Positions 3,701 to 46,077 of a stretch of DNA of 64,000 nt are shown piece after piece. This DNA comes from Bacteroidia bacterium (lineage in GTDB: Bacteria > Bacteroidota > Bacteroidia > M30B66), in the NCBI GenBank assembly GCA_019695235.1, contig JAIBAI010000004.1, forward strand, positions 23,111 through 87,110, read 5' to 3'. Made by a program: the position numbers and the translations under genes. Numbering within the stretch: position 1 is the first letter of the stretch; each line of letters opens with the position of its first letter. The notes below the pieces were generated by a model. It searched no databases. It worked only from the letters and a program-made list of their open reading frames with translations, and had not been told where the DNA came from.

Positions 3701-6700
3701 AAGAACCACCGCAAAGATCTGTTCTGTCTTCTGAGGTAGCCAAATCATTCCAGAGGAAAGTATAAGGAGTTGTACCACCAGTTACATTAACATCTAATGC
3801 ACCGTTGCAGGCACCACAACTTGCATCTGTAACCAAAGCAGTAGCGGTTGGGCCTGCGATATTCAGAATTTCGAAGCTTCTTGTGGCTTCGCAACCTGCA
3901 TCATCTTTAATGGTTACCTCACAAACACCTGCTGGCATTTCGCTAATGTCTTCAGTAACTGCATCAACACATGACCAGGTAATTTCAAACGGACTTTGCC
4001 CGCCGGATATAGTCAAGTCAATGGCACCATTTTCAAGTCCGCAGGTAGCGTTGGTAACATGTCCGGCTATTGTAAATTGGTTTGAATTTTCAATAGTAAT
4101 TTCGAGTGAATCAGAACATTGACTGCCATCTGGTACCACTACAACTTTATAAGTTCCGGCAACGAGGCCAGTTTGGTCTTCTGCATTAAGGGCCACTCCC
4201 GTCCCAGACCAGGTATAGGTATAGGTTGCAAGCGGGCTCACTGTAATATCAATACTTCCTTCGGCATTTCCGCAGGTGGTATTTACTGAGGTGTGGCTAA
4301 TTTGAGGGGCATCAGTATTGGTAATGTTAAAGGTACCAGTTACTTCACATCCAGTTGAATCAGTTACTGTTACAGCGTATGTTCCGGAAGCAAGAGCACT
4401 GATATCCTGAGTAGTTTCATTACCAGGAGACCAGGTGTAGGTATAAGGTGCTTTTCCACCACTTACCTGCAAGTCAATTGAGCCGGTAGCATTAGCACAA
4501 GTAGTGTTAATTTGGGTGGCAGTCAATGAAGGTTTACCTGTATTCACCAGATTCGCAACACTGGTAATCTCGCATCCATTGGCATCAGTTACAGTGGCAG
4601 AATAGGCCCCTGCAGCAAGGTTTGTCTGGGTTGAAGTAGTATCTCCCATGTTGTGTGCCCATGAAAGGATGTAAGGTGCTACACCACCAGAAACACTTGC
4701 AGTAATTGCTCCATTATTGAGGCCACACGAAGGTTGAGTAATTGCAAAAGCAATTACAGGTGCATTTTCTGGTTGAACACATTGTTGCAAACTCACTTCA
4801 CAACCGGCCTCATCAGTTATCTTTGCATTGTAACAACCTGCCGGAAGGTTACTAATGTCTTCGGTGCTGGCAGCGAATCCGTTGGGACCTGTCCATGTAA
4901 CAGTATATGCAGGTGTTCCGCCGGTAATTTCAAGGTTGATAGCTCCTTCAGCCAATCCACAAGGAGTATTGGTAATTGTTCCATCTAATTGCGGAAGGTT
5001 TTCGTAGGCAAGAATCGCTGTATCTCTTACCACACAACCATTTGCATCAGTAGCGGTAACACGGTAGGTACCTGGCCCGAGATTACTTACATCTTCAGTA
5101 TTGGCAAATGTTACCTCATTTTTTCTCCATACATATATAATAGGAGAAGTCATTTCAAGAAGACTCAGGTCAATGTGCGCTGTATCGTGTCCACAATTTG
5201 GTTGCGTAAATATTAGGCTTGCAAGGGGAGGTAAGCTGGCAGCAACTTCAAACGTTTTGCGTGTTTCACAATTTTGTTCATCCCGAACAATAATTTCATA
5301 GAAGCCGGCATGGAGGTTCACCAAGTCTTCGGTGGTTTCATTACCTGGCAACCAGGTAACGGTAGGATTTACACCACCGGAAATGATTACATCAATTAAG
5401 CCATTGTTAAGGCCACAACGGGTATTTACAACAGTAGCAGTAACCTGGGGAGCATTTTCAAAAATAATTTCAGCGCCGCCAGTTACAGTACAGGTAGTTG
5501 TCGAATCATAAACTGTTACCTCATAAAGCCCAACCATCAGCGCGTTAATATTAGCTGAATCATTGGTATATCCATTGGGGCCAGTCCATTCAATCGCATA
5601 ATGGCCAGAGCCATTGTTAATTGTCATTTCAATTGCGCCGGCATTTTGGGCGCAGGCGCTTGGATGAGCAGTTATGTCTAATATAGGTTGATTTCCATAT
5701 ATAATTGTGATGCTTCCACTTGTTTTGCAAGTAGTATCAGCTGCATCTTTTACTACCACGCTGTAAGTTCCAATGGCAAGTGTATCAATATCTTCGGTAG
5801 TTTCTCCATTTGACCATTCATACAGGTAAGTACCAGAACCTCCAGTAACAGTGAGGTCAATAGCGCCATCTGTGTTACCACAGGTTGCATCGATTTTGTT
5901 GAAAGTTAACCCTGGTTTTACTGCTGGTTGAATTGTTGCTACTACGGTAGTTGAACATTGGGCAGCACCAGTAATTTTCACGGTATATGTTCCGGCAGGC
6001 AGATTTACTGCATCTTCGGTAATGGTTTGCGTGTTTGGAGTCCACTCATAGGTAAATGGTGCTTGTCCGCCATCAACTGTAATATTTATTGAGCCTCCAT
6101 TCGGATTACCGCAGGTTGGATTAGTTACCTGGGCTGTAGCAGTAAATTCATTTTCGTTGATAATCGTAGCTGAAATCAGCACCTGACAATTGTTGTCGTC
6201 ACGAATTGTATCGGTGTAGGTTCCGGCAGGAAGCCCTGAGATATCTTCTGTAGTTGCGCCGTTGCTCCAGCTATGTGTGATTGTACCTGTTCCACCGGTA
6301 ACATTCAAATCAATAGATCCGAGTGACTGCGCACAGAGCGTATGGGTAATGGTATTTACAGTTGCAACCGGGGCGCCTTCATTTACTATAGTAGCTGAGG
6401 CGCTTGCAGTACAAGCAGTAGTTGAATCATAAACGGTAACTGTATATGTTCCGGCCGATAGTCCGCTACGGTTTTGGGTAATTGCATTGTCGTTCCACAA
6501 GAAGCTAAAAGGCCCTGTTGAACCAGTAATTGTCAGGGTTAATTCACCATTGGAAGTTCCGCAGGTTGCATTGGTGGGGACCATGCCCAACACCGGTTGA
6601 TTGGTATTGATAACTGTAAATGTTTTTGTGGCTTTACAACCTTGTTGGTCAGTGGCAGTAAGGGTATAAGAACCAGCGGGGATATTCTGAAGCTCAGACG

Positions 6701-9934: not shown

Positions 9935-10576
9935 TTACATAATTGCACGGTCTGGTTCAAATTCTTCCAGGGTAGCAAAATGGTATTTTTTCTTTAGTTC
10001 GTCAATGATTTCTTCCAGAATGGGTAAAACATTTTTTGATGCTTTAACAGAATCATGAAAAACAATAACAGAGCCATTCCGGCAGTTATTCAACACATTT
10101 GCCTTGCATTGATTTGCAGTCAGACGCTGGTCATAGTCCATTGCCAGTACGTCCCACATGACAATCTGAAAATTTTGCCTTTTTATTTCCCTGTACTGGC
10201 TTCGTTTCATTTTACCATATGGCGGCCTAAAAAGTTTGCTTTTTACATATTCAGCACATTGCTGCACTTCGGTCAGGTAGGCCGACACATCTGATTTCAG
10301 TCCGTTTTTATGGTGAAAAGTATGGTTGCCCACACAATGGCCCTGCTCAAGCAATTGTTTGAAAAGCCCGGGGTATTTCCGTACGTTATCCCCGATGCAA
10401 AAGAATGTAGCTTTCACATCACACTTTTGCAATATACTCAGTACCTGTGGGGTAATATCAGGTATGGGGCCATCATCAAATGTGAGATAAATCTGCGCCT
10501 TATTTTTATCGCCCCGCCACAAGGCCTTAGGGTAAATAAGGCGCATCCATGGCGGGGGGCAGACCAGAAAACTCAC
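9935..10576 (-). CDS. polysaccharide deacetylase (NodB-homology, CE4) family protein
   Basis: The TFDDGP motif (YLTFDDGP) and His-containing motifs (GNHTFHH) are typical of NodB-type deacetylases. 6-bp gaps to the genes on each side suggest an operon. Confidence 0.8.
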   Translation of the reverse strand: MSFLVCPPPWMRLIYPKALWRGDKNKAQIYLTFDDGPIPDITPQVLSILQKCDVKATFFCIGDNVRKYPGLFKQLLEQGHCVGNHTFHHKNGLKSDVSAYLTEVQQCAEYVKSKLFRPPYGKMKRSQYREIKRQNFQIVMWDVLAMDYDQRLTANQCKANVLNNCRNGSVIVFHDSVKASKNVLPILEEIIDELKKKYHFATLEEFEPDRAIM

Positions 10577-10582
10577 ATCTTA

Positions 10583-13500
10583 TTAATTTACTGCTGGTTT
10601 AACAACTGAAACCGGTCTGGCTGCTTCCAGTTGTTCAAATGCAGGGCTCAATTCTTTCACCAATTGGTCACGTTTGGCACGTCGTGCAACCTGCAAAAGG
10701 AAGTTGTAAATAGACATATTCCGGTCGGCTTCAGAACTAAATTCTTTGTACACCTCTTTCTTTTGTTTGAAGTAGTAACTGGTTTCTTTTTGCAAAATTC
10801 CGGCGTAATCCTTTAATATCTTGTCGCCCTTGTCGGGTGCACCAGCCTTGTAGTAATCATCAGCAAGGTTAATAACAAAGAAATTATAGGGAATATTATT
10901 TTCCGGAAGCACTTCAAAAGCGCGGTCGAGCACCTTCAGTGTTGAATCTTTTTTGCCAACTTCGAGCAAGGCATTAGCCAGGCGATCGAAGGTACTGCGA
11001 AGATTCATTGTCATGCGCAGGTTGTTCTCATCCATATAGAGTGGATTTTTATCTACCCCACCCCATTTGAATTTCTCCATTACATTTTTGTACATCAAAT
11101 CTGGCTCTACCCTGCCCATGTTGTCGCCTCTTCCACTGCTTGGCGGATTTTTCACAGGCACCAGGCGGTAAGCCAGACCTTCAAGCTGGAAGTAATCCTG
11201 CAAGCCGAGATAACTGTCATCACCAACGGTGATTGCAAAATACACAGGTCGTTTCCAGTTATTCTGGGCCAGCAGGTCAAGAATCATCAAATCAGCTTTA
11301 AGCAGGTACTGGCGCTCAATTGAGAAATCTACTTCCTTCACCACCTGATTTGCCAGATGTTTTGGCACAGTACCATTGCTCAGTACGGTCGCACTGTCAA
11401 CGGGGATACTGAACTTATTGGATGGGAAATAATCAAAAAAGCGGTCTTCATAACGGAACTTCAGATTAGGGTCATCAGATGCTACGAATTTTATCATTTC
11501 ACGAATATCCTGGTATCCGGCAAGGCCTTTGTCAGCGATAATTATTTGTTCACGTTTTCCTTGCCTGTATTGGGCCGGGGTAAACGAAATAGGTACCGCA
11601 TCAGAGTCGTATGCTTTTCGACGAATCTGGTCAATGTACCAGTCGGTGTTGAGCAGACTCAGGTTCACCACTCTAACATCAGTACGAATTCCTTCAACTT
11701 CCTGGGCATACCAGAGGGGGAATGTATCGTTGTCGCCATTGGTAAACAGAATGGCATTCGGGGCACAAGAATTGAGGTAATTTGAAGCGTAATCACGCGC
11801 CGTATAGCGGTCAGAACGGTCATGATCATCCCAACCCTCCTTAGCCATCAGGCCTGGTACTGCCACCAAAGTGACAAGGGTAACCAATGAGGCTGCGATA
11901 GCTGCCGGGGTGTATTTTTTCAGGAATTCTATCAATCCGGCAACACCCAAACCGATCCAGATGGCATACACATAAAATGAACCTGCAAACCCGTAATCAC
12001 GCTCGCGTGGCTCGTTGGTATATTGGTTCAGGAAGATAATAATGGCTAACCCGGTAAAGAAGAAGAACAAGGATACGATTAAGAAGTCGCGTTTATCCTT
12101 ACGGTATTGGTAAATCAGGCCGATTAGCCCCAGAATAAATGGCAGGAAGTAAAACGAATTGTTGGCTTTGTTACCTGCCAGCGAAGGGGGTACGTCATTT
12201 TGTGTACCCAGCCTTGGAGCATCCATTGCTGCAATACCTGATTTCCAGCCACCGTCAGTTGATGGAGTACCATGCCCCTGCACGTCATTTACCCGACCGA
12301 TAAAGTTCCAGGCAAAATAGCGCAGGTACATAAATCCGACCTGGTAGCCAAAAAAGAATTTCAGGTTCTGGCCAAACGAAGGCTTACGCTGATTCTTCGG
12401 ATCATTCTTTATATCGGCCCAGCTTTTATAGCCTCTGATGTGCGAAGGTTGCGAGCTCCACATCCGGGGGAAAATGGTTGAATACTCTTTGTCGAAATTT
12501 GGCTCCTGATTGTCTTTTGGAGTTGAAACTACAATATACTTGCCGGTTTCACGATCGGGCGCATAAACAGTATTGCCGTCTTTGTATGGTTTAGAACGGT
12601 CAAGGGGTGCGTTGTAGTATTGTCCGTATACAAGTGGTCGCGTACCATATTGTTCACGGTTCAGGTACGACAGCAGTGTAAATACGTTTTCCGGATTGTT
12701 CTCATCCATTGGTGTATCGGCAGAAGAACGAATAACAATCATGCCGTAGCTGCCATATCCGATGAGCATCACGGTGATACATACTGTCAATGTATTTGCC
12801 AGCCGGAAGTTGTTTTTCTTTACCAGCATGAAGTAAGCCATCACCCCTACCGCAAGAATTCCGAAGAAAAGTCCGGAAATCAGCAGTAGCAGTACCGACA
12901 AGCTAATAAATGCAGGCATTTCTTTTTCATCAGAAGAAAATTTCAATGAAAGTATAATCAATACTACCAATGCAAGGATATATACCAATGCGCCTGTTCC
13001 GAAGGCCATTCCCATGCTGTTGGTAAAGAGTAATTCAAATTGTGCAGCAGTACCAACAACCTTTGGTATAAGGGCAAATTGAACAAAGCCCAGAAGCAAC
13101 ATTCCGAGTATGGCAGTAATTAAAATGCCAGCACCTGTTTTTTTGAACCTGCGGAAATAGAATACATAAGCTAATGCCGGAATAGTTAACAGGTTTAATA
13201 AGTGGACCCCTATACTCAAGCCCATCAGATAGGCAATCAGTACAAGATAACGATCGGCATGCGGTTCATCAGCTATGGCTTCCCATTTAAGCATCAGCCA
13301 GAATACAACTGCGGTAAAGAGAGAAGATGTAGCATAAACTTCACCTTCAACAGCTGAAAACCAGAAAGTATCAGAGAAGGTATAAGCCAAAGCGCCTACC
13401 AAACCTGAACCTACAATGGCAATTGTTTCAGCCATATTTGCAGGAGCTTTCCCTTTGGTAACAAATTTTCGCGCCAGGTGTGTGATGCTCCAAAAGAGGA

Positions 13501-25246: not shown

Positions 25247-25338
25247 ACTTATCGGGTCTTCAATACAGCCTTTTTGAACGGCCGGATGAAATGGTGATTT
25301 ATGTCAGAAAAGTTGTCTTCCATGAAAAATGAGGCATT

Positions 25339-25385
25339 AATTTGACATATTTTTTGGCATGTCGGAATATTTGACGATATTTCCG
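25339..25385 (+). promoter_or_regulatory. operator-like repeats immediately upstream of the XRE/S24 repressor gene
   Basis: Two copies of TTTGAC(A/GA)TATTT (25341-25353 and 25369-25382). The second copy is embedded in an imperfect inverted repeat CGGAATATTTGACGATATTTCCG (25363-25385) that abuts the ATG at 25388. Confidence 0.3.
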
Positions 25386-25387
25386 GC

Positions 25388-26176
25388 ATGTTTACAGCCC
25401 CCAACCTGAAATTTCTGCGTAAGCAAAAAGGCTTGTCGCAGGAGGAAGTTTCTGCCGCATTAGGCATTAAACGTACAACCCTGAGTGGATATGAGAACGG
25501 TTCAGCGGAACCAAACTTTGAAAATCTCATTAAGCTAACTGATTTTTATGCAGTAGCTATTGACCAGGTGATAAAGGCAGACCTTCAATCACAAACAGGG
25601 GGGGCGCTCAAAGGCGCTGACCTATCTGGGGGGGCGCTCCGGGTGCTGGCAACAACGGTTGATAGCGACAACAACGAAAATATTGAGTTGGTTCCGTTCA
25701 AAGCAAGGGCGGGGTATACAGCCGGGTATGCTGACCCTGAGTACATTGCGGTACTGCCTACCTTTCAGCTTCCATTTCTTTCGCCAAATCGCAAATACCG
25801 TACCTTCCCCATCATTGGTGACTCAATGCCACCTGTAGCTGACGGCTCCTGGGTCACAGGTGAATATCTACAAAACTGGAACTTTATCCAGAACGGGCTT
25901 CCGTATATATTAGTGACCCTTGATGAGGGCATTGTTTTTAAAACGGTTTACAACCGTATTGAAAAGTCGGGTACGCTGCTACTTTGTTCTACCAATCCCA
26001 CCTATGAGCCTTACGAAGTTGATATTAACACTGTAAAGGAGGTATGGAAGTTTGTGCACTTTATCAGTCATGAGTTGCCTGAACCCAATCTGAGTAAGGA
26101 TGAGATTTCAGACACGGTCATGGAATTGCAGAGAGAAGTGAGTCTGCTGCGCAACGAAATACGCCGTAAAAAATAA
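25388..26176 (+). CDS. XRE-family HTH + S24 peptidase (LexA/cI-like) self-cleaving transcriptional repressor
   Basis: N-terminal HTH (LRKQKGLSQEEVSAALGIKRTTLSGYENG). C-terminal S24 domain with GDSM (IIGDSMPPVADGSWV) and a conserved Lys (VFKTV). The linker has a duplicated GGAL motif (GGALKGADLSGGALRVLATT) and the VPFKARAGY cleavage-site region. Confidence 0.8.
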   Translation: MFTAPNLKFLRKQKGLSQEEVSAALGIKRTTLSGYENGSAEPNFENLIKLTDFYAVAIDQVIKADLQSQTGGALKGADLSGGALRVLATTVDSDNNENIELVPFKARAGYTAGYADPEYIAVLPTFQLPFLSPNRKYRTFPIIGDSMPPVADGSWVTGEYLQNWNFIQNGLPYILVTLDEGIVFKTVYNRIEKSGTLLLCSTNPTYEPYEVDINTVKEVWKFVHFISHELPEPNLSKDEISDTVMELQREVSLLRNEIRRKK

Positions 26177-26198
26177 ACACCCGGTTTTGGCCGGGTGT
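26177..26198. terminator. bidirectional hairpin terminator between convergent genes
   Basis: ACACCCGG-TTTTGG-CCGGGTGT hairpin. The minus-strand reading is followed by TTATTTTTT, a good T-tail for the minus-strand gene ending at 26224. The plus-strand T-tail is weaker. Confidence 0.55.
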
Positions 26199-26223
26199 TT
26201 ATGCATGTTGCGTTTCTGTGCCT

Positions 26224-27606
26224 TTATTGACGTATCACACGAATGCTTGAATTGGTGTTGAGGGTGCGATAATTAACAAAATACACCCCTGCACTTGACA
26301 ACATCCCACTTAAATCACTGGTACTCACACCGGCAGGCAAGTTTAGCAGTCGCTCTGCTATCTTTTTTCCGGTGATATCAAGCACTTGAATAGTTACTGC
26401 CTCTGATTTCTCAAGCTCACAGGTCAAATAAAGGGTTTCATCTGCCGGATTTGGATAAACTGACCAGTTTAGTTGAACTGTAGGACTTTCGATGCCCACA
26501 AGGTCTTCAATATCAGTGATATTACGTGGTAGCAACCTGTAATTGCCGAATGCATAGGTAATTACACCGCTTATGTTATATCTATGCCCTACAACGGGTG
26601 TGTAACGAAATAACACTGTATCCACCAATAGGTCACCAGAACCATCATTGGCAGGCCAAACCTTAAAGTTGTTAGGTGCAGCAGTTGCTTCGGCATTGCT
26701 GGCCTTCACTAATACCCCTTCAAATGGTTCAGTGCCAAGTACAGCGGTGGTGCCTTCATGTGCCGCTGGAACAGTATTGCCTCCAGATACTTTGTTAAAG
26801 TTACTTACCTGTTCTATTTGGGTAGTGTTAAAATACTCCTTTACAGTACCCGAAATGGTAAGGCTGTCGCCAATAGCTACTGTGCTACTGCGGGCCGGGT
26901 CATAAACAAAAACCCCACTCCAATTCCCTGTTCCTGCTTGCAGAAAATACCCTCCGTTGGGGTTTGGTTTTACGGCAGTAATGATACCACCGGTGGTAAC
27001 TTTCTGGTCTTTCAGTGGTGAATCTCCAGCTGACTCTTCTGTAAACTGAATATCGTATATACTAACCGGAACCACGCTTGCAGGGGTGATGGCTACGCTG
27101 TCAATCTGAATGTGGTTGTTGGCAGCATTGGTGTTGCGGATCGAGAAAATAAATTGTGCCCCATCGGTTGTTGTATCGGCAGCAACTGATTGGTTTACCT
27201 CAACCCAGTCTTCACTGTCAAGGGTAAAATAACTGCTGTAACCGTATCCGGCATCATTGTCGCCCTTATCATTGTCGAACAAACCTGCACGAATCTCGCC
27301 CTTTCCTTTTACAAAATATTTAAAATGATACTCTTTTCCTTCTTCTACGCTAACAGCATTTGAAGAAAATCGTTTATGGCTGTTCGACCTGTTTTGCAAC
27401 TGTACTGCTGTACTGCCATATACAGTACCTGAATTCACCTGTGTAATTGAGTCTACCCCCAGATTTGAAGCAGAGCCTTGCCAATCAGTAGGTTTTCCAC
27501 TGTCCCAATTCTCAAAACTACTTGTAAAAACCGGGGCCTGTGCAAACGCTCCTCCGCCTATTAACAGGGCGCCCAGAACGCTAAAAAATGTACTTGCTTT
27601 TTTCAT
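26224..27606 (-). CDS. secreted T9SS cargo protein with ExeM/NucH-type (COG2374-like) OB-fold nucleic-acid-binding module
   Basis: 460 aa with a signal peptide. The central VSIYDIQF...VTTGGIITAV...GGYFLQAG...GVFVYD...IGDSLTISGTVKEYFNTTQI pattern is the N-terminal module of predicted extracellular nucleases. The C-terminal ~85 aa (VYPNPADETLYLTCEL...GVYFVNY) is a T9SS CTD. No catalytic nuclease domain. Confidence 0.55.
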   Translation of the reverse strand: MKKASTFFSVLGALLIGGGAFAQAPVFTSSFENWDSGKPTDWQGSASNLGVDSITQVNSGTVYGSTAVQLQNRSNSHKRFSSNAVSVEEGKEYHFKYFVKGKGEIRAGLFDNDKGDNDAGYGYSSYFTLDSEDWVEVNQSVAADTTTDGAQFIFSIRNTNAANNHIQIDSVAITPASVVPVSIYDIQFTEESAGDSPLKDQKVTTGGIITAVKPNPNGGYFLQAGTGNWSGVFVYDPARSSTVAIGDSLTISGTVKEYFNTTQIEQVSNFNKVSGGNTVPAAHEGTTAVLGTEPFEGVLVKASNAEATAAPNNFKVWPANDGSGDLLVDTVLFRYTPVVGHRYNISGVITYAFGNYRLLPRNITDIEDLVGIESPTVQLNWSVYPNPADETLYLTCELEKSEAVTIQVLDITGKKIAERLLNLPAGVSTSDLSGMLSSAGVYFVNYRTLNTNSSIRVIRQ

Positions 27607-27626
27607 GTGTGTATTTGTTTGCTGTT

Positions 27627-28913
27627 TTAGTCTCTGATATAAATATTGTCAAGGGCTGATGTGCCTGTTTTTCCTGCAGGAGCACTGCCTGTGTACCTGA
27701 ATGCAATATGAAAATTACCTGTATAGCCCTGTGGCAGATAGCCGCTTAGGTCAATATCACCTGAACTTACCCATGCATAATTTGCATTTGACTGGCCTGC
27801 TAATGTTGCCGTAACAGACGACCATGAGGCAGTAGTAGGGTTTGAGCCATCAAAATTGGTGCTAATGAGCACCTCCAGTGCGTTGTGCGTCCAGTTTGAT
27901 ACAGCCGAACTAAATGAAAGTTTCTTTGTGGCACTATTGATCACTGGTGGGGTAATCAGCCAGGAAATATTATTTGCATCTGATGACTGATATGAACTTA
28001 TTTGGGCATACTTGTCAGTATTGTTAAAAATACGACCTCGCCAGTAACGCGTTCCTGTAGTCGCAATATTAAGCCATCCGGCGGCGGCATAATCAATGTT
28101 ATTCGTTACATTATCAAAAGCCTCCTGTACAACGGCAACAGGGTCAACCGGACCGCCTCCTGTGCAACGATCACCGGTCATGGTTAATTCTGCAGGGTTG
28201 CGAACATACAGTTGCATATCACCGTTGAATTCACTTACCACTGCAATAAGTGAACCATTGCCAGAAGGTACTGTTTGGCTTGCGAAGCTTGCATAACCGC
28301 TGGTTCTTACAAGAACTGTTTTTCCATTGCAATCTGTAAGTGTATGATTCACTGTGGTCTGATTCACTGCATCCGACCATGATTTACCCAGATCTGCTGC
28401 TGTAAACTCCGACTGGTCAATGCGAACCAGCTTTGCCTGCATCCCTGATAATTGGTCAATTGTTGCAACAGTAGGTTGCCGTTTACGGCCTGTAGCCTGC
28501 TTTACAACGTTATTGTCAACGCTTACTGAATCTAATTGCAGCATACCATTATAGCGGCTAACATAGCAATTCTTTAGATAAATTCTGATGGAGTCTCCCT
28601 CGTATAAACCACCAGAATTAAGCAACCTTACGTTGATTGCTCCGGTATTGTCTTCGATAAAAATGTTTTTGTACAAATTGCCACTGCGTTCGTCGGCAGT
28701 TACTACAGCATAAACCGATGAGTCACCAATAATTTTCACGGTTTTGTTTACGTATAATGCACGCAAATCTGCTATTGTCAGCACACTACCAGTTGGCAAG
28801 GTCCTGAGGGGAGGCGTGTCAAACTCTTTCTTGCATCCACCCATGGTGGTTAAAAATAGAAGAGCAAATAATCCGATAATGGAAGAAATGTATTTCATGA
28901 AATGTAAAATCAA
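27627..28913 (-). CDS. DUF5689-like lipoprotein (OB-fold-like region + choice-of-anchor-J-like C-terminal domain)
   Basis: Lipoprotein signal (LFLTTMGGC). Blocks VTIADLRALY...IFIEDNTGAINVRL...GDSIRIYL... and GKTVLVRTSGYASF...MQLYVRNP. The C-terminal part resembles the anchor-J domain of the 23993 gene (GWLN...FHIAFRYTGS). Confidence 0.55.
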   Translation of the reverse strand: MILHFMKYISSIIGLFALLFLTTMGGCKKEFDTPPLRTLPTGSVLTIADLRALYVNKTVKIIGDSSVYAVVTADERSGNLYKNIFIEDNTGAINVRLLNSGGLYEGDSIRIYLKNCYVSRYNGMLQLDSVSVDNNVVKQATGRKRQPTVATIDQLSGMQAKLVRIDQSEFTAADLGKSWSDAVNQTTVNHTLTDCNGKTVLVRTSGYASFASQTVPSGNGSLIAVVSEFNGDMQLYVRNPAELTMTGDRCTGGGPVDPVAVVQEAFDNVTNNIDYAAAGWLNIATTGTRYWRGRIFNNTDKYAQISSYQSSDANNISWLITPPVINSATKKLSFSSAVSNWTHNALEVLISTNFDGSNPTTASWSSVTATLAGQSNANYAWVSSGDIDLSGYLPQGYTGNFHIAFRYTGSAPAGKTGTSALDNIYIRD

Positions 28914-31429
28914 AAACGGTAAGAAATAACCAAATTATAAATTGCCCCCAGGCTGTACACTCTTTTTTGAGGGAACTTGTCAATATTATCAGTGTCGTAA
29001 CGCAACTGTTCAAAAGCAGAAATCACAAACTTCTGGTTGTTCAGGGCGTTATTAATATTTAGGCTAATGTTCAAATTATTGCCTTTTATTCTGAAAGATT
29101 TCCCTAATGAAAGGTCTAAAGTTACAGCAGGGTCAAACTCTTGTTGTTCAAGTAATTCAGTCCATTGTGGATCAGAAGTAACGAATTTGTCTAAAGCTTC
29201 TGCACTTCTTCGGTCAGGATTGGGTTCAGCAAAAATATCTCTGAAATAATTCAGGTTGGCGCCAGCCCACCAGCCTTTCCGGCCATTGAAACGCAAACCT
29301 AAACTAACAGCAGTTTGAGGCATCCCTCCTATTCTGTAATTTTCAAAATAAATCAACCTGTTTTCAGCCAGCAATTCAGCTGAGTTATCACGCACAATCG
29401 TAGCAAGTGGCCTTGAATTGTAAATATACATGCCCTTTGATGCTACCAATTGCAGTGTAAAAGGGCCATAGACATTGTATTCGCCCGCAAACTCAAGGCC
29501 CTGATGCAACTGCCCTACACCACTCATGGTGTAATTTACAAGATTCCGGTAATCATCATGGTAGAAATTCCGGTACCAAACCTGGTTACTAAATTCAGTA
29601 TGGAACCATGTAAGGCGCAGTTTAAGTCGAGGATAACGAATTTGGTAGTTGAAATCATACGAGGCTACGGTTTCACTACGCAGGCCTGGCACAAGGTCGG
29701 GGCGGGTTCGTGGCGACAAGAAAGCTTCTCTCGACAAGGGGGCACGGCTGTAATAAGCCGCATTGGCATATACATAATGCCTTCCGTTGATTTTCCATGT
29801 CAGCCCGCCTTTAACCCCGCCGTTTGTGAAGTTCTGTTTGGCAGAATTACCAGATGAACTGTTCGGAAAACGCCCATTCACCATGTTGCCTTCACGCCAA
29901 AAAGCGGTATGCGACAGATGAGCGGCAACATAGCCTTCCCATTTTGCCTTACTATACTCGAGCTGAGAAAAACCCATGTATTGTTGTTGGTGAATATTAT
30001 AGTCAAAGCCAAAAACATCACCTTTCTTAATAACATTATTCGGATTATTTAAATCGTTCTGTGCCACATTGGGGTCAGCAAAATCACGCTCTGCAAACTG
30101 ATCAACATCTAACCAGAAATCACCGCCTAACAGGTCATTCATGCGTTTGTAATTTCTGCTTTTGTAAAACAATCCATTTATCCCGCCGGATAGTTTCATG
30201 CTTTCACCAAATGCGCGGGTACCAAGCAGCGTAAAGCCTCCCTGCCTGCGGTCAATCACCGACTCTTCGAGCACATATTTTGAACGATTACCGGTTAAAA
30301 TCTGTCCTGCCTGGCCATCAGGATTTGTTACCTGATATAAATTCTTTGAATTGGCAAAATAGAGTTGCTCCCAATTAATTTGTCGGATATTCTCATTGGT
30401 TTCCCATGCGTTTGTCATTGCCTGCGCCCTTGCAGGGTCTTCTTCAGCATAATAGCTGGGCAGATAACGGTAGTAATCCGGGCGTGGGTCTGCTGCTTCG
30501 TACCAATTCAAATTTGTATAACTGTTTCGTCCGAAAGCGTAAAAAAGTGAGCCTGTAATTTTTGTATTTTCATCCGGCTGGTAGATATGGCTTAAAATAA
30601 TGGTAGGCATGTGGTTATTGCTTACCCTGGCATTGCGTTTTTCACCGTTTTGGTATCCCCAGTTAGGGTTATAAAAGTTTGAACCTGCCAGGTCATAAGC
30701 TTCCTGAGTGGCAAAACCTTGCCGCCCCTGCCGGATAGGTGCTCCAAAGGCAATCAGGTTTAGGCTGTGCCGCTTGTTAAATTTCTTTTCTGCCGCCCCA
30801 AAATAGCTCCAGGCATCAAAGAATGTCCCTTCCACAAAGCCTTCCTGCGACCAGCGTCTTGAACCGGAAAAAGTGAATGCCCATCCGTTCTTATTAAAAC
30901 CTGTTGAATGGGTAAACATGACCCTGTGCCTGAAAATCCGGTTACTGCTGGCATACGAAACCGAAGTTCCGGGCCGTAGTGAACCTGCCCTGGCCTCGAT
31001 GTGCGAATACCCTCCTACCCCCGAAAAGGTATAACGGCTGTCTTGCAAATAGGGGCGCATTTCCTGAAACCGGGTAACATCATTCAAACCGCCCCAGTTG
31101 GCAAATGTAGCCAGGCCTGATTCGGCATCATTGAGTTTCACCCCATTGATCATTACCGCAAAGTTCTCCGTGCTGTATCCACGTATCCGGAAACGGGCAG
31201 TGCCAAAATGAAAACCTGCGGTACTGGCGTATAAATCACGCGATGATTGTAATAAGCCGGATACATCTTGCCCGCCTTTATCAGAATCGGCATCATCCCC
31301 GCTTACACTAAACAAAGGTATCCGGTTTACATTTGCCGAATCAGGCTTAACTATGGTGTCACTTTGAGCCATGATCTGACCGGAGAACATGACTACCAAT
31401 GCGCTTAAGGAGAGTATGAATTGCTTCAC
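28910..31429 (-). CDS. TonB-dependent receptor-like outer-membrane beta-barrel protein
   Basis: About 840 aa. Preferred GTG start at 31429 gives the signal peptide MKQFILSLSALVVMFSGQIMA-QS (the tool ORF extends to 31495). Plug-like region (RFRIRGYSTENFAVMINGVKLND), a long beta-rich body and a C-terminal ...YNLVISYRF with terminal Phe. Confidence 0.65.
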   Translation of the reverse strand: MKQFILSLSALVVMFSGQIMAQSDTIVKPDSANVNRIPLFSVSGDDADSDKGGQDVSGLLQSSRDLYASTAGFHFGTARFRIRGYSTENFAVMINGVKLNDAESGLATFANWGGLNDVTRFQEMRPYLQDSRYTFSGVGGYSHIEARAGSLRPGTSVSYASSNRIFRHRVMFTHSTGFNKNGWAFTFSGSRRWSQEGFVEGTFFDAWSYFGAAEKKFNKRHSLNLIAFGAPIRQGRQGFATQEAYDLAGSNFYNPNWGYQNGEKRNARVSNNHMPTIILSHIYQPDENTKITGSLFYAFGRNSYTNLNWYEAADPRPDYYRYLPSYYAEEDPARAQAMTNAWETNENIRQINWEQLYFANSKNLYQVTNPDGQAGQILTGNRSKYVLEESVIDRRQGGFTLLGTRAFGESMKLSGGINGLFYKSRNYKRMNDLLGGDFWLDVDQFAERDFADPNVAQNDLNNPNNVIKKGDVFGFDYNIHQQQYMGFSQLEYSKAKWEGYVAAHLSHTAFWREGNMVNGRFPNSSSGNSAKQNFTNGGVKGGLTWKINGRHYVYANAAYYSRAPLSREAFLSPRTRPDLVPGLRSETVASYDFNYQIRYPRLKLRLTWFHTEFSNQVWYRNFYHDDYRNLVNYTMSGVGQLHQGLEFAGEYNVYGPFTLQLVASKGMYIYNSRPLATIVRDNSAELLAENRLIYFENYRIGGMPQTAVSLGLRFNGRKGWWAGANLNYFRDIFAEPNPDRRSAEALDKFVTSDPQWTELLEQQEFDPAVTLDLSLGKSFRIKGNNLNISLNINNALNNQKFVISAFEQLRYDTDNIDKFPQKRVYSLGAIYNLVISYRF

Positions 31430-31624
31430 GGAAATTTTTAGGGCTACAAATATAGACTGTTCATTCAGCCGGGATACAAGTTTACAATTTTTCATGCATG
31501 TTTTAACCTAAAGATGAAATTAAAGCCTTACTATTTATATTCGCTTTACAAATCATTCGTTCATGACAAATGGAATATCTTTAATTTGCATGCTTAATTC
31601 GCTTGTTTCAAACTTACTCAAAAC

Positions 31625-32680
31625 ATGAACCACCGGGCCTCCATTATAGCGTCATTGAGTTTTATTTTTATTTTCAACCCTTTCGGGGGTTTTTCTCAGG
31701 AAAAACCAAAGAAATTTGAGGTGGCTTGCATTGGCTTTTACAATGTTGAAAACTTATACGACACCGAGAATGATACTTTGGTGAACGACGAAGAATTTTT
31801 GCCGGAAGGGGGTAATCGCTGGACGGACAAGCTATACCGCGAAAAACTACAACACATGAGTCAGGTAATCAGCCAGATAGGCACCGACGCAAGTCCTGAT
31901 GGTGCAATTGTATTAGGCATGGCAGAAATTGAAAACCGGAAAGTTGTTGAAGATCTTATTGCCCAACCCTTACTGAAAGGCCGGAATTATGGTATTGTTC
32001 ACTACGATGGCCCTGACCGTCGGGGGGTTGACGTGGGTCTTATCTACCGGAAAGATTTCTTTACAGTAGAATCGTCAAGAAGCATACGTTTAGTGAATCC
32101 TTCCGACACTTCCTTCAGAACACGCGACCAATTGTTGGTAAGCGGGAGTTTACGTGGCGAACGGGTGCATTTCATGGTAGCACACTGGCCTTCGCGCAGG
32201 GGAGGAGAAAAAGCCAGCTCACCTTTGCGGATGCTTGCCGCCCAAACTGGTCGTAAAGTCATTGATTCAATCTTAGCCGTAGAGCCCAATGCCCGTATTA
32301 TTTATATGGGCGATTTAAACGATGACCCCATCAATAAAAGCCTTACCGAGGGTTTGCGTGCCAAGGGAAACAGAAACAAGCTACAAGCAGGTGACATGTT
32401 TAATACCATGTATGCATTTTACAAAGATGGTATTGGCACTCTCGCCTATAGGGATGCGTGGAATCTCTTTGATCAACTGGTTATTACACAACCTTTTTTA
32501 AATGGTAACGACGGAGGGTTTCAGTTTAATCGTTCGCGAATCTTTAACAAGCCCTTCATCAGAAAACAAGATGGCAACTTCGATGGCTACCCCTGGCGTA
32601 CCTTTGTTGGTGGCAAATACGATGGTGGCTTTAGCGACCACTTCCCGGTTTACTTGGTCTTGATGCGAGAAATCAAGTAA
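31625..32680 (+). CDS. secreted endonuclease/exonuclease/phosphatase (EEP, DNase I-like) family protein
   Basis: Signal peptide, then YNVENLYDTEND, GDLNDDP and SDHFPVYLVL, which are conserved EEP catalytic blocks. Resembles the C-terminal nuclease domain of ExeM/NucH-type extracellular nucleases. Confidence 0.8.
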   Translation: MNHRASIIASLSFIFIFNPFGGFSQEKPKKFEVACIGFYNVENLYDTENDTLVNDEEFLPEGGNRWTDKLYREKLQHMSQVISQIGTDASPDGAIVLGMAEIENRKVVEDLIAQPLLKGRNYGIVHYDGPDRRGVDVGLIYRKDFFTVESSRSIRLVNPSDTSFRTRDQLLVSGSLRGERVHFMVAHWPSRRGGEKASSPLRMLAAQTGRKVIDSILAVEPNARIIYMGDLNDDPINKSLTEGLRAKGNRNKLQAGDMFNTMYAFYKDGIGTLAYRDAWNLFDQLVITQPFLNGNDGGFQFNRSRIFNKPFIRKQDGNFDGYPWRTFVGGKYDGGFSDHFPVYLVLMREIK

Positions 32681-32684
32681 TAAT

Positions 32685-34373
32685 TTACCTGGCAACTGCA
32701 ACCCGAAACACTGCTCTCTCCTGCCCTGTCACTACTTCAAGCAAGTAAATCCCGGCATTCAGCTCTGCAACATCTACTTGTATAGAATGGGTACTACCTG
32801 TGCCTGAAAGTTGCCGGATGGTTTGCCCGCCTAAATCTGATAAGCGCACCTGCACCTGCTGACTATTTGAATTATCTGTGCGTTTTAGTTGAATACTACT
32901 TGCTGCCGGATTAGGGAACACCTGCCACAACGTCTGTGGCAGCGCCATCGGAGAGATGCCTACCGTTCTTCCGGTATAGCGTTTGAATAGCCACGAAAAT
33001 GCCTGGTAATATTGATTGGCGATGTCGGCATCATGAATTATCAGGGTATTTTCATCGTTCTTTGTTTCGGCCGATGTGCTCCAGTTATGCGAGCCCGTCA
33101 ATACCTGAGGGTCTGAACCCGGAGCAGTGGCATCAGCAATTACAAATTTATGATGCATAATACCTGCAAAGCCATTGTTACTGGTCATTCTGCCAAATCT
33201 CAATGCCCCCTTTAATTGATTCCATTCTGCCACCTGATCAACCTGGGTAGAGTCATCAATGACCCCATAGGTTTCAGTAAGCCCGTTGCTGACACGGTTT
33301 GTAATGGCATTGGCAATATCGAAACGGGTTATTACCATAGAAGCAAACTCCAAATCGTAGCCTGCTGAGTTAATCACTCCTATAATCTGGGCATTTGCTC
33401 CATCAGAAGGACTGAAATAGGAGCGCACCCGACGTCCACCAATATTGAATTCATGCGGGGTGTTATTGGTCTTATCAGGTCCGAATTTTGCGTTGGCTTC
33501 GTTAGGCTGAGGCCCGGTACTTCCAAACATTTCTTCAAACTCAAGCTTGTATGCCCTTGCCAGTGCCTGGTCTTGCAGGATAATCACATTGTTCTCATCC
33601 GGCCCATTTAATTGATCTACCGTCCAGTTGGTCGAACCCGTCCATACCAATGCGTCATTCGGATTTTCAGCATCAGCATCAATAACCACAAATTTATTAT
33701 GCATGAGTCCATAAGTAAAGTTGCGTACCTTACTTTTTATTTTTCCAATCTGCGATGATACATTGGGAATCATCGTGTTGCTCGAAGACTCATCATACAC
33801 CATCCTCACCTGCACCCCACGTGTTCTGGCACTGTTTAATGCGGCAGCAATATTTGACAAACTATTAGCGGTTGAACTGTTGTAAATCGCGATATCAATG
33901 GTTTGTTTTGCACGATTAAGATAGGCAATCAGGGTATCATCAACCAACTTGTTTAAATAATTGGCAGGGGTTTGGGTGGCTACTGCATGCTCAACCTCAT
34001 GGTTAAAATAGACCTTTATTTCACCTGTTGACAGGGCGCGGGTTGTGTATAAAAACGGACCTGATTTTAAAGTATCGTTCTGGTTTGCGGCGAAAAAAGT
34101 AACCTGATAAAAACGTGCTGGTTCACCTTCCCGGAAGATCCAGCGAAAGTTTTCCTGTTGTTCGCCAAGCTGCATCGTGCCTGTCTGGTTGGTATGGGTA
34201 GCCGACCATTCGACCCATGCATTTGCCTTCTGGTTAAGTTGCCAGTTCAAGGTGAATCCATTGGATTGAATAGTATTTACAGTTGCTTCATTATGTAATG
34301 CCAATTTCTGTGCTCCAACAAAAAAGGGCGCTTGAAAAATCAGGCTTAGGGTCAAAAAAACAATATGCTTCAT
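32685..34373 (-). CDS. phospholipase D-superfamily protein (two HKD motifs) with T9SS type-A C-terminal sorting domain
   Basis: Two HxK(x)4D motifs (LMHNKFVVIDA...GSTNWT and IMHHKFVIADA...GSHNWS). Signal peptide. C-terminal QVFPNPAASSIQL...GIYLLEVVTGQERAVFRVAVAR matches a T9SS CTD. Confidence 0.8.
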   Translation of the reverse strand: MKHIVFLTLSLIFQAPFFVGAQKLALHNEATVNTIQSNGFTLNWQLNQKANAWVEWSATHTNQTGTMQLGEQQENFRWIFREGEPARFYQVTFFAANQNDTLKSGPFLYTTRALSTGEIKVYFNHEVEHAVATQTPANYLNKLVDDTLIAYLNRAKQTIDIAIYNSSTANSLSNIAAALNSARTRGVQVRMVYDESSSNTMIPNVSSQIGKIKSKVRNFTYGLMHNKFVVIDADAENPNDALVWTGSTNWTVDQLNGPDENNVIILQDQALARAYKLEFEEMFGSTGPQPNEANAKFGPDKTNNTPHEFNIGGRRVRSYFSPSDGANAQIIGVINSAGYDLEFASMVITRFDIANAITNRVSNGLTETYGVIDDSTQVDQVAEWNQLKGALRFGRMTSNNGFAGIMHHKFVIADATAPGSDPQVLTGSHNWSTSAETKNDENTLIIHDADIANQYYQAFSWLFKRYTGRTVGISPMALPQTLWQVFPNPAASSIQLKRTDNSNSQQVQVRLSDLGGQTIRQLSGTGSTHSIQVDVAELNAGIYLLEVVTGQERAVFRVAVAR

Positions 34374-34673
34374 TTGGCCAAAGATAATTGGCTTTGCAAC
34401 ATATTACAACCAATGATTTTTTTGTGGGTTTCGTTTGTGAAAGCTAAAGGATGTGAGAGGATTCTCATTCCGGATATTGTGAGCATTCACGAACCTGAAA
34501 AATTGAAAGTCCCGACAACGACCATTGGCGCTGGTTCAGGGCAGATATTAACAGCAAAGTTCAGAACTAAACGTTTATACACGGATGGTCATTTTGAGCC
34601 AAAAAAGGCATTGCGTACCTTTATGACGGGGCAGCGGGTGCTGTCCCCGGGCAGGTATTTATTTGAAAATGCG

Positions 34674-34708
34674 CTCTATATAAGTTGCACTCTATAAGTT
34701 GCACTCTG
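34674..34708 (+). repeat. short tandem direct repeat (CTCTATA(TA)AGTTGCA x2 plus a partial third copy) in a 400-bp divergent intergenic region
   Basis: ctctatataagttgca / ctctataagttgca / ctctg, read directly from the sequence. Confidence 0.5.
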
Positions 34709-34751
34709 TTTGTTCTATCTGTAATAGATTTCCTTTCTCTTTAAATCGGGC

Positions 34752-34759
34752 TATATTTG
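34752..34759 (+). promoter_or_regulatory. candidate Bacteroidetes -7 promoter element (TATATTTG) for the deoxyhypusine-synthase-like gene
   Basis: Matches TAnnTTTG; lies 19 bp upstream of the ATG at 34779. Confidence 0.35.
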
Positions 34760-34778
34760 CCGGCTCAAAATACCAATC

Positions 34779-41870: not shown

Positions 41871-42461
41871 TCATGAAAGCAAAATTTCAATGAATTCAGC
41901 AAATGAAAAGGCTGGAGCAAAATCAGGGCCGGGAATTTCTTCAGAAAGTATTTCCAGGTACAATGGGCGTTCGTCAATATACTTGATTTGCAGGGTGATA
42001 ATTCCATATAGCTGCTCTTGCCGCGAATTGCCAATAAAGACAGGGCTTGCAGGACGTAAAACATGCTTTTCTGTTTTCTCAATGTATCCAAGTCTTTCAA
42101 CGATCTTTCTGTCACTCAGGTACGACTGATAGCCCAGTTTTAAGGTACATTCTTTAAAGTAGTCCATCAAAAAAGGGAATAAATCTTTACCAAAACTATC
42201 CAGATAGTGTATAAGCAAACGTTTCCGGCTTTCCTCCTGAAAAACATGCAATGGCATTTCCCCGTCAATTCCTAAATTGCCGAATGTGAAAGAGGTGTAC
42301 AGGTTTTTCAGCGGCTCTTTATGCCGATGTAACTTCAGCCATTTCTGGTACATAAGCCTGAACGACTGTGGCCTGACCAACATCTCATGCCGCACCTGAT
42401 TCAGGTTGTTTTCCGGAAGGTAAAATAATTGCCTGACAAATTTTACAATGCCGCTAACCAT
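41871..42461 (-). CDS. hypothetical protein (196 aa)
   Basis: Fills the gap in a long co-directional minus-strand gene array. No recognisable motif. Overlapping alternative-frame ORFs are shorter. Confidence 0.4.
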   Translation of the reverse strand: MVSGIVKFVRQLFYLPENNLNQVRHEMLVRPQSFRLMYQKWLKLHRHKEPLKNLYTSFTFGNLGIDGEMPLHVFQEESRKRLLIHYLDSFGKDLFPFLMDYFKECTLKLGYQSYLSDRKIVERLGYIEKTEKHVLRPASPVFIGNSRQEQLYGIITLQIKYIDERPLYLEILSEEIPGPDFAPAFSFAEFIEILLS

Positions 42462-45951: not shown

Positions 45952-46077
45952 GTAAAGAGGCTCACACCCTATTCGTTGCTAAATATCTGGCATAATCATT
46001 CGACAAAATATCCTTCAATTTATTCACAAATAATTGGGATTTTAAATATTTTTTATATTTTGCAGAGAAAATATCCT

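Follow-up and report, generated by a model that had tools for sequence, protein, structure and literature searches.

Which role does a repressor with the domain architecture of a phage cI protein play in a bacterial chromosome when no prophage is seen around it? This question is raised by a gene in a 64,000-nt stretch of DNA from a Bacteroidia bacterium (GenBank assembly GCA_019695235.1, contig JAIBAI010000004.1, positions 23,111 to 87,110), which is referred to as the window in the following. The first-pass annotation had described the gene product as a repressor with a helix-turn-helix (HTH) domain of the XRE type and an S24 autopeptidase domain. It had been considered either an SOS-like switch, possibly for the neighbouring nuclease and uptake genes, or the remnant of a decayed prophage. 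The analysis presented here indicates that the gene probably codes for an SOS-type repressor which belongs to the 'non-canonical LexA' family of Bacteroidota, is encoded on the chromosome and regulates its own gene.

Bacteroidetes do not possess the canonical LexA and use S24 repressors instead (Sanchez-Osuna et al. 2021, NAR 49:11050, PMC8565304). These non-canonical LexA proteins consist of a cI-like HTH, an unstructured linker and an S24 domain with Ala-Gly and Ser-Lys, followed by an extra terminal helix, and the whole family has been proposed to descend from a phage repressor (PMC8565304). The published operators are GGA-N5-TCC (S. agarivorans type) and CTAA-N5-TTAG (P. actiniarum type). 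Induction by mitomycin C and specific binding in electrophoretic mobility shift assays (EMSA) were demonstrated for members of the family, and cleavage was not demonstrated directly in that paper. Paralogues with other dyads, regulon contraction and motif drift were also documented, and in E. anophelis the regulator gene lies divergent from a damage-inducible error-prone polymerase gene. In the survey of complete genomes carried out in 2021, the family was absent from the order Bacteroidales (PMC8565304).

Affiliation to the non-canonical LexA family

Judged by its sequence, the window gene is a member of the family described in 2021 and belongs to a sister clade with a variant operator. A database search retrieved 6771 homologues. 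The best 120 share 55-100% identity with the window protein and have lengths of 206-296 aa (259-296 aa with one exception). Among these best 120, every source name that bears a taxon is a Bacteroidota metagenome-assembled genome (MAG), and several of the proteins carry the NCBI name 'LexA family transcriptional regulator'. Among genome records, the best match is to L001, a Flavobacteriales MAG from freshwater.

For comparison, the C-terminal domains (CTDs) of nine CTAA-cluster and five GGA-cluster members were taken from Supplementary Data S5 of PMC8565304. In BLAST analyses, residues 94-257 of the window protein showed 40-48% identity to the nine CTAA-N5-TTAG-cluster domains (E 1e-30 to 1e-56), including that of the experimentally studied P. 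actiniarum protein (WP_025606010.1, 45%), and 29-34% identity to the five GGA-N5-TCC-cluster domains. The same residues gave no match to the CTDs of E. coli LexA, lambda cI and UmuD. In a neighbour-joining tree calculated without bootstrap, the window protein and 26 relatives formed one clade, which is sister to the CTAA cluster and lies inside the family. Members of this clade share a mean identity of 65% with one another, 44% with the CTAA cluster and 31% with the GGA cluster; for the CTAA cluster itself the mean is 51%.

Beside this sequence similarity, the window protein possesses the structural traits of the family, namely the XRE HTH, the S24 domain with Ala-Gly and Ser-Lys, and the terminal helix (Table 1). 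Pfam HTH_3 (PF01381) matched residues 7-59 (E 8e-17). LexA_DNA_bind gave no Pfam match, and LexA was absent from the phmmer and PDB profile matches, with the XRE-type HTH of 2kpj as the exception. The AlphaFold model (mean predicted local distance difference test score, pLDDT, 72) comprises five N-terminal helices (pLDDT about 90), a beta-rich domain (residues 137-226) and a long helix (residues 237-261). Its predicted fold matches LexA, cI and UmuD', the C-terminal fold being the one shared with LexA. Furthermore, a Pfam scan of the 41 open reading frames (ORFs) of at least 120 aa in the 64 kb, none of which is nested in a larger ORF, returned no phage family (integrase, terminase and capsid included). 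The earlier description as a repressor with XRE HTH and S24 fold outside a prophage context was thus confirmed.

In alignments of 27 and 32 homologues with a mean column identity of 66-68%, A106 and A108-G109-Y110 (KARAGY), G144, S146 and M147 (GDSM) as well as F184-K185 (VFK) are invariant. Cleavage is predicted between Ala108 and Gly109. Ser146 falls into the alignment column that holds the catalytic serine in E. coli LexA (replaced by Ala in 1JHC, the S119A entry) and the serine in cI and UmuD (Supplementary Data S5, PMC8565304). The internal duplication of the linker, which had already been noticed in the first pass, is present as a 12-nt DNA repeat (GGGGGGGCGCTC at 25598-25609 and 25628-25639, 30 nt apart) encoding GGAL...GGAL. 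It is missing from every aligned homologue and sits in the least conserved part of the linker; therefore, a function is not indicated for this duplication, which is unique to the window sequence among the aligned homologues.

Database versions of the regulator with 288-289 aa (P0007, P0017 and others) appear to result from a start codon called 22 codons too early. A TGGC-N7-GCCA palindrome, which L165 (10011-10025) shares with L168 at the corresponding position, is located about 45 nt upstream of the true start and inside the database-annotated coding sequence. With regard to annotation, 'non-canonical LexA-type SOS repressor' can replace the names 'XRE family regulator' and 'phage repressor'.

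Operators and promoter of the regulator gene

The leader located 5' of the regulator gene (25249-25387, 139 nt) contains two TTTGAC-N-ATATTT direct repeats, as reported before. The pattern TTTGAC-N0-2-ATATTT occurs exactly twice in the 64 kb, at 25341 and 25370 (0.06 expected; 0 of 100 shuffles reached two occurrences). A recurrence of this motif upstream of other genes, for which a search had been suggested, was not found within the 64 kb, where only the regulator leader carries it. The pair extends to two 23-nt copies, ATTTGACATATTTTTTGGCATGT and ATTTGACGATATTTCCGGCATGT, which are 29 nt apart; each ends with GGCATGT, and the second copy ends in the start codon.

The proposal that these repeats are autoregulatory operators stood with regard to their place, and the unit had to be redefined. 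The window sites are two tandem 19-bp imperfect dyads of the form TTGAC-N9-GKCAT with centres 29 bp apart, and TTTGAC-N-ATATTT corresponds to the left half and the spacer of such a dyad. Position and sequence are kept in relatives, and the same dyad precedes error-prone polymerase genes at other loci, which points to a putative operator. In addition, the imperfect palindrome CGGAATAT-TTGACG-ATATTTCCG (25363-25385) described in the first pass is present in the sequence; it is not conserved in the closest relatives, where TTGACG-N7-CGGCAT is conserved instead, and it was therefore rejected as a functional unit.

Promoters of Bacteroidetes follow a consensus with TTTG at -33 and TAnnTTTG at -7. 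TTTG at 25341-25344 resembles a -33 element of this type, and AATATTTG at 25366-25373 resembles the -7 box. Dyads lying over the promoter and the start codon are the layout expected for autorepression by occlusion.

The operator was further analysed in 168 orthologous loci, consisting of 80 genome loci, 80 metagenome loci (mostly from one rumen lineage, with few close relatives) and 8 loci of closer relatives, from which 96 dereplicated leaders were obtained. When every dyad of 4- or 5-mers with a spacer of 0-12 was counted in these leaders without bias, TTGA-N11-TCAA was found in 36 of 96 and TTTGA-N11-TCAAA in 32 of 96 leaders (0.05 expected for the latter). The consensus over the 96 leaders is TTGAY-N9-RTCAA, which equals neither of the published motifs; matches of at least 8/10 are present in 72 leaders, often as two tandem sites. 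Loci of the order Bacteroidales contain sites of the form TTGATTA-N5-TAATCAA with a spacing of 23-24 bp. Flavobacteriales-type relatives show TTGACR-N7-YGTCAA, for example as perfect TTGACAAAAATTCTGTCAA in L004 and TTGACGGATTTTTTGTCAA in L161.

L161 and L163 (77% identity) carry a site at each of the two window positions. The distal position (-46) holds TTGACGGATTTTTTGTCAA, a 10/10 dyad, in L161 and TTGACATGAATTTGGTCGT in L163, and in both loci the stop codon of the methylmalonyl-CoA mutase gene precedes this site by about 4-21 bp; therefore, most of the short spacer is made up of the two operators. The proximal site of the window recurs unchanged in L001 and L161. In all eight of the closest relatives its TTGAC does not vary, in contrast to the drifting flanks. 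L166 has at the distal position the reverse complement of its proximal copy (TGACG-N7-CGGCA), and the imperfect dyad therefore behaves as a unit.

In the 168 loci, the 260 bp upstream of the regulator gene account for 93 occurrences of the perfect 19-bp dyad, and the other 2.46 Mb for 117. Among these 117, many are located farther than 260 bp upstream of the regulator gene itself, or at a distance of 2-8 kb upstream and before a gene for a protein of about 950 aa, and many precede the polymerase genes IMS or dnaE2. The dyad is also found at a large distance from the start codon, before long leaders. Many rumen orthologues (L030, L042, L057, L059, L060, L066-L069 and L079) possess such a long leader between operator and ATG; a conserved repeat of A/C-rich type (CTCAACAATTAAACAGTTAAACAACCAACACTTCAACAAT) forms its end about 40 nt before the ATG.

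Linkage to an error-prone polymerase cassette

In the orthologous loci, the divergent neighbour of the regulator gene encodes a Y-family polymerase (378 aa, Pfam IMS and IMS_C), and the protein of about 950 aa is a DnaE2-like polymerase III alpha subunit (Pfam PHP, DNA_pol3_alpha, finger, HHH_6). According to tblastn, the Y-family polymerase gene is located close upstream and divergent in 134 of 168 loci, and dnaE2 lies beyond it in 113 of 168. In the loci inspected, the cassette is preceded by the same dyad, and perfect dyads are present in the spacer between regulator and polymerase genes, and again directly upstream of dnaE2 when the genes are separated. A separated dnaE2 keeps its own perfect or near-perfect operator, as exemplified by TTGATTAGTTTTTAATCAA in L032. 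In some rumen Bacteroidales loci, mobile-looking genes are inserted: a KilA-N gene between the regulator and the Y-family polymerase gene (L032:9162-9986) and a Gp49/HigB-like gene by the operator of dnaE2, between the polymerase gene and dnaE2 (L052:4353-4676).

The same arrangement was found with the TTGAC-type operator. In L082, whose regulator is 58% identical, TTGACATTTTTTACGTCAT (9/10 dyad) precedes the IMS-DnaE2 operon. A homologue search with the L082 polymerase yielded three additional loci (L169-L171); the L165 genome was not represented among the best 120 matches of this search. L170 carries a perfect TTGACGTTAATATTGTCAA, and L171 carries a perfect TTGACAAAAAATATGTCAA as well as TTGATTAAATTATTGGCAA, directly upstream of IMS-DnaE2, and an adjacent orthologous regulator is absent in both loci. 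Therefore, missing linkage does not mean missing regulation. In L169, a Salibacteraceae MAG, a 60%-identical regulator is divergent from IMS-DnaE2, and a gene for an SOS-response-associated peptidase (SRAP) follows immediately beyond on the opposite strand.

Two further observations were made at these loci. Just downstream of IMS-DnaE2, L171 encodes a 245-aa S24 protein without a Pfam HTH match (10337-11074, minus strand); with 29% identity to the window protein, it represents a distant family paralogue. The spacer of L169 (5876-6000) contains TTGTCA-N6-TGACAA, i.e. the same half-sites in opposite polarity, and TTGAC-N21-GTCAA, and L002 is similarly inverted.

The pairing with the polymerase/DnaE2 cassette, a classical SOS mutagenesis module, supports a role as a putative SOS repressor. 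The SOS-like, RecA-stimulated switch suggested in the first pass fits well with a family for which induction by DNA damage and operator binding were shown experimentally in 2021. By analogy, the regulon in the genome of this organism would be similar, and the cassette would lie outside the 64-kb window.

Many of the loci bear the label Bacteroidales (Lentimicrobiaceae, Candidatus Limimorpha, Rikenellaceae, rumen MAGs), the order from which the family was reported absent. A TTGAY-N9-RTCAA operator and a spread in this order were not found described in PMC8565304 or through one literature search, which yielded this paper alone. The chances are about even that the clade represents a third, unnamed non-canonical LexA lineage with its own 19-bp operator TTGAY-N9-RTCAA. 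This lineage would provide the missing SOS repressor of many Bacteroidales lineages (rumen, gut and sediment MAGs), where it is divergently tied to the Y-family polymerase/DnaE2 cassette. It would be uncoupled from the cassette in the freshwater Flavobacteriales lineage to which the window belongs, and located there beside a locus for scavenging of extracellular DNA. The comparative data give TTGAY-N9-RTCAA as an operator prediction and suggest an SOS-type circuit over Y-family polymerase and DnaE2 in Bacteroidales, which bears on stress-induced mutagenesis in rumen and gut Bacteroidota.

Proposed mechanism of regulation

Dimers of the repressor would bind via the cI-like HTH to the tandem dyads at 25342-25360 and 25371-25389, as suggested by conservation, symmetry and the EMSA data on the family. 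With both the promoter hexamers and the start codon lying under these dyads, the repressor would shut off its own transcription by occlusion. The same dyad would silence the Y-family polymerase/DnaE2 cassette and probably other repair genes, which is based on comparative genomics of the orthologues and would be transferred to this genome. Upon DNA damage, RecA filaments on single-stranded DNA would evoke self-cleavage at Ala108-Gly109 by Ser146 and Lys185, consistent with the invariant residues and the fold. Cleavage would split the HTH off from the C-terminal domain responsible for dimerisation, and the regulon, to which the repressor gene itself belongs, would be derepressed. The terminal helix may stabilise the dimer, as the authors of the 2021 study speculated (PMC8565304).

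Observations against this assignment and alternative explanations

Several observations weigh against the assignment as an autoregulated SOS repressor of this family. With regard to the protein, the Peptidase_S24 match (residues 127-213) reached 22.9 bits, which is just under the Pfam cut-off of 23.3, the cleavage-site loop and the linker are of low confidence in the AlphaFold model, and a sequence profile search of the PDB does not reach LexA or cI. The experimental evidence for the family comes from members outside the clade of the window protein. With regard to the operators, neither GGA-N5-TCC nor CTAA-N5-TTAG is present in the leader (25249-25387), and exact CTAA-N5-TTAG is absent from the whole 64 kb, where 11 one-mismatch matches occur against 27 expected, none of them in the leader. 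Because members with other dyads are documented in PMC8565304, however, the published operators define the two clusters rather than the family.

Both window dyads are imperfect (8/10 each) and contain GGCA where the perfect site has GTCA. TGACR-N7-YGKCA matches only the two leader sites in the 64 kb, so that a second operator location was not found. Allowing up to two mismatches, TTGAC-N9-GTCAA matched 49 times in the window (35 expected), and nearly all of these matches are intragenic; for an 8/10 site at 46000 behind priA, a convincing target gene was not found. Furthermore, IMS and DnaE2 are absent within 10 kb in the window and in the relatives with at least 59.9% identity, except L169. 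Finally, the half-sites coincide with the TTTG promoter elements, and part of their conservation could be promoter conservation.

The last point leads to a first alternative, according to which the TTTGAC...ATATTT repeats are only -33 (TTTG) and -7 (TAnnTTTG) promoter elements and autoregulation does not occur through them. Each repeat contains TTTG, the 21-nt spacing from 25341-25344 to 25366-25373 suits the Bacteroidetes consensus, and a sigma-70-type scan also calls TTGACA-18-AATATT. A promoter, however, leaves the conserved symmetric right arm (RTCAA) and the accumulation of perfect dyads near the regulator gene unexplained, and it does not account for dyads located far from the start codon before long leaders. 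As operators over promoter hexamers are normal for LexA- and cI-type repressors, the two readings are compatible, and an exclusive promoter function is unlikely.

Similarly unlikely is a second alternative, namely that a family member was retargeted in this freshwater Flavobacteriales lineage and is confined to autoregulation, controls a small non-SOS regulon or responds to a signal other than the RecA filament. The lacking linkage to the polymerase cassette, the degenerate right arms of both window operators, and the regulon contraction and motif drift among family paralogues (PMC8565304) are in line with such a change. Against it stand the catalytic and cleavage residues, which are invariant in the clade, and the perfect TTGAC-N9-GTCAA dyads before IMS-DnaE2 in L170 and L171, where an orthologous regulator is not adjacent. 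A repressor of the SOS type is the preferred reading.

Third, the regulator might locally control the adjacent extracellular-nuclease/TonB-receptor locus (26224-34373), as had been suggested in the first-pass annotation, and it might link DNA damage or DNA availability to nuclease secretion. This locus, which is flanked by the regulator gene and a deoxyhypusine-synthase-like gene, codes for a protein with a type IX secretion system (T9SS) tail, a DUF5689 protein, a TonB-dependent receptor, an Exo_endo_phos_3 nuclease and a PLD-type nuclease with T9SS tail, and is of the extracellular-DNA-scavenging type. The regulator gene adjoins the T9SS/DUF5689/TonB-receptor/nuclease locus in L001 (80%), L161/L162 (77%) and L166 (72%). 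In L165/L168 (69%) and on the P0025 contig (67%) it adjoins another nuclease set (Endonuclease_1-T9SS, TonB receptor, LTD-T9SS). However, the regulator gene and the first gene of the locus are convergent with a hairpin terminator between them, and motif scans as well as reading by eye revealed no operator-like site in the promoters of the locus (31496-31624 and 34374-34778).

In L166, an insertion of 4 kb (Rrf2/cbb3-oxidase) also breaks the adjacency, as does a toxin-antitoxin pair on the P0025 contig, and in L163 the adjacency is absent. The remaining loci, with at most 60% identity, showed no match to the nuclease-locus genes of the window, and most orthologues below 60% pair with IMS/DnaE2. 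Synteny limited to close relatives is expected from vertical inheritance, and the adjacency is read as inherited gene order. Local control is therefore very unlikely, and the idea that the regulator runs the neighbouring nuclease and uptake locus is removed by these results. Because the operator was not seen at the promoters of the locus, it is likewise highly improbable that nuclease secretion or DNA uptake there is also under the control of DNA-damage signalling.

The differing gene set in the same slot of L165 and L168 suggests a conserved 'nuclease island' with exchangeable content. In the unusually long spacer (405 bp) between the gene of the PLD-type nuclease and the deoxyhypusine-synthase-like gene, the near-tandem repeat CTCTATATAAGTTGCA / CTCTATAAGTTGCA (34674-34703) was observed, which may be a regulatory element.

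Least probable of all is the decayed-prophage alternative, i.e. a surviving cI-type immunity repressor without host function: the domain architecture, weak full-length similarity to phage repressors (Elizabethkingia phage TCUEAP3, 33% over 87% of the query; others 24-27%) and the phage-repressor descent argued for the whole family in PMC8565304 are outweighed by the absence of phage families among the 41 ORFs, conserved housekeeping synteny of both flanks in relatives, more than 160 orthologous loci with 50-80% identity in chromosomal contexts, the lack of relatives in an IMG/VR scan, with a best deposited phage protein of 33% identity, and strong purifying selection visible in the column identities and invariant catalytic residues. 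An ancient phage origin of the whole family is possible.

Comparison with related regulators

The CTAA-N5-TTAG cluster with P. actiniarum WP_025606010.1 is most similar to the window clade. Both share the XRE HTH, the linker, the S24 domain with Ala-Gly and Ser/Lys and the terminal helix, and both are restricted to Bacteroidota and chromosomal, with a dyad at their own promoter that is often tandem (at a distance of about 20-23 bp in the CTAA cluster). Linkage to error-prone polymerases is common to the cluster and to most orthologues of the window protein. However, the window clade is a separate sister (44% mean identity versus 51% inside the cluster), and its 19-bp TTGAY-N9-RTCAA carries the information in the outer arms, whereas the motif of the cluster has 13 bp. 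The one published site that was inspected in its context is flanked by A...T and not by TTG...CAA as in the window clade. Moreover, the window clade is abundant in MAGs of the Bacteroidales, in which the family was found absent in the paper. The GGA-N5-TCC cluster (Salegentibacter agarivorans WP_075324850.1) belongs to the same family with the same architecture and occurs in Flavobacteriales hosts, but differs in CTD identity (29-34%), operator and branch of the tree.

Divergent paralogues such as that of Elizabethkingia anophelis (WP_078407279.1, TTAC-N5-GTAA; PMC8565304, Fig. 8 and Table S10) likewise possess a private palindromic operator near the start codon, and the divergent pair of regulator and polymerase genes in E. 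anophelis is the arrangement found in 134 of the 168 loci. These paralogues are lineage-specific and use 4-N5-4 dyads, whereas the window clade is an orthologous group with 50-80% identity in two orders and a longer dyad.

In contrast to canonical LexA (E. coli 1JHC/3JSO; T. maritima 3K2Z; COG1974), the window protein has an all-helical XRE/cI HTH instead of a winged helix and an extra C-terminal helix; a match at the sequence level is lacking, and the operator is unrelated to CTGT-N8-ACAG. Unlike the phage cI-type repressors (lambda cI, P22 c2, 434) and ImmR of ICEBs1, the window gene is not phage-borne, and its conservation is that of a host gene. Error-prone polymerases are also controlled after DNA damage by the S24-family non-LexA regulators HdiR (Lactococcus/Streptococcus) and UmuDAb (Acinetobacter), but these occur in other phyla and have other origins; their regulons are minimal, and UmuDAb is derived from UmuD.

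Features of the locus and of the window

Table 1. Predicted features of the regulator gene and its surroundings in the window.
Feature	Position	Strand	Remarks
Promoter-like elements	25341..25373	+	TTGACA 25342-25347, 18-nt spacer, AATATT 25366-25371; sigma-70-type scan, 10/12 matches
Distal operator (candidate) TTGACATATTTTTTGGCAT	25342..25360	+	imperfect 19-bp dyad, position -46; overlaps -35/-33 promoter element
Proximal operator (candidate) TTGACGATATTTCCGGCAT	25371..25389	+	position -17; overlaps -10/-7 element, likely transcription start and first two bases of ATG
Non-canonical LexA-type repressor gene (262 aa)	25388..26176	+	XRE HTH, linker, S24 autopeptidase domain, terminal helix; ORF, Pfam, homology
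N-terminal five-helix XRE/cI-type HTH DNA-binding domain, residues 3-63	25394..25576	+	
Variable linker, residues 64-104	25577..25699	+	low pLDDT, poorly conserved, 4-6 residues shorter than in most homologues
Predicted scissile bond Ala108-Gly109 (KARA/GY, bond at the slash)	25709..25714	+	invariant in 27 and 32 homologues; aligns with published Ala-Gly of the family
Predicted catalytic Ser146 (GDSM motif)	25823..25825	+	invariant in 27 and 32 homologues
Predicted catalytic Lys185 (IVFK motif)	25940..25942	+	invariant; published catalytic Lys column
Extra C-terminal alpha-helix, residues 237-261	26096..26170	+	DSSP helix in model; family hallmark, absent from LexA and cI
Likely bidirectional terminator, G+C-rich hairpin with 12-bp stem	26173..26202		between the convergent regulator gene and T9SS gene 26224-27606 (minus strand)

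Rfam and tRNA scans revealed nothing relevant close to the regulator gene. The Pfam families detected in the window comprise an SprB gliding adhesin, acyltransferase, M20 peptidase, methylmalonyl-CoA mutase, TonB receptor, nucleases and asparaginase, furthermore TatD, DsbD, S41 peptidase, dCMP deaminase, prephenate dehydrogenase and PriA, as well as a DtxR-type repressor, CTP synthase, Lnt, IleRS, LspA, MutS and gliding/T9SS families. A 196-aa ORF (41871..42461) showed no Pfam match. On the minus strand at 762-8309, a 2515-aa SprB-repeat protein with a CHU_C/T9SS sorting signal is encoded, which is of the gliding-motility adhesin type. Together with the many T9SS tails in the window, this protein marks the source as a gliding member of the Bacteroidota.

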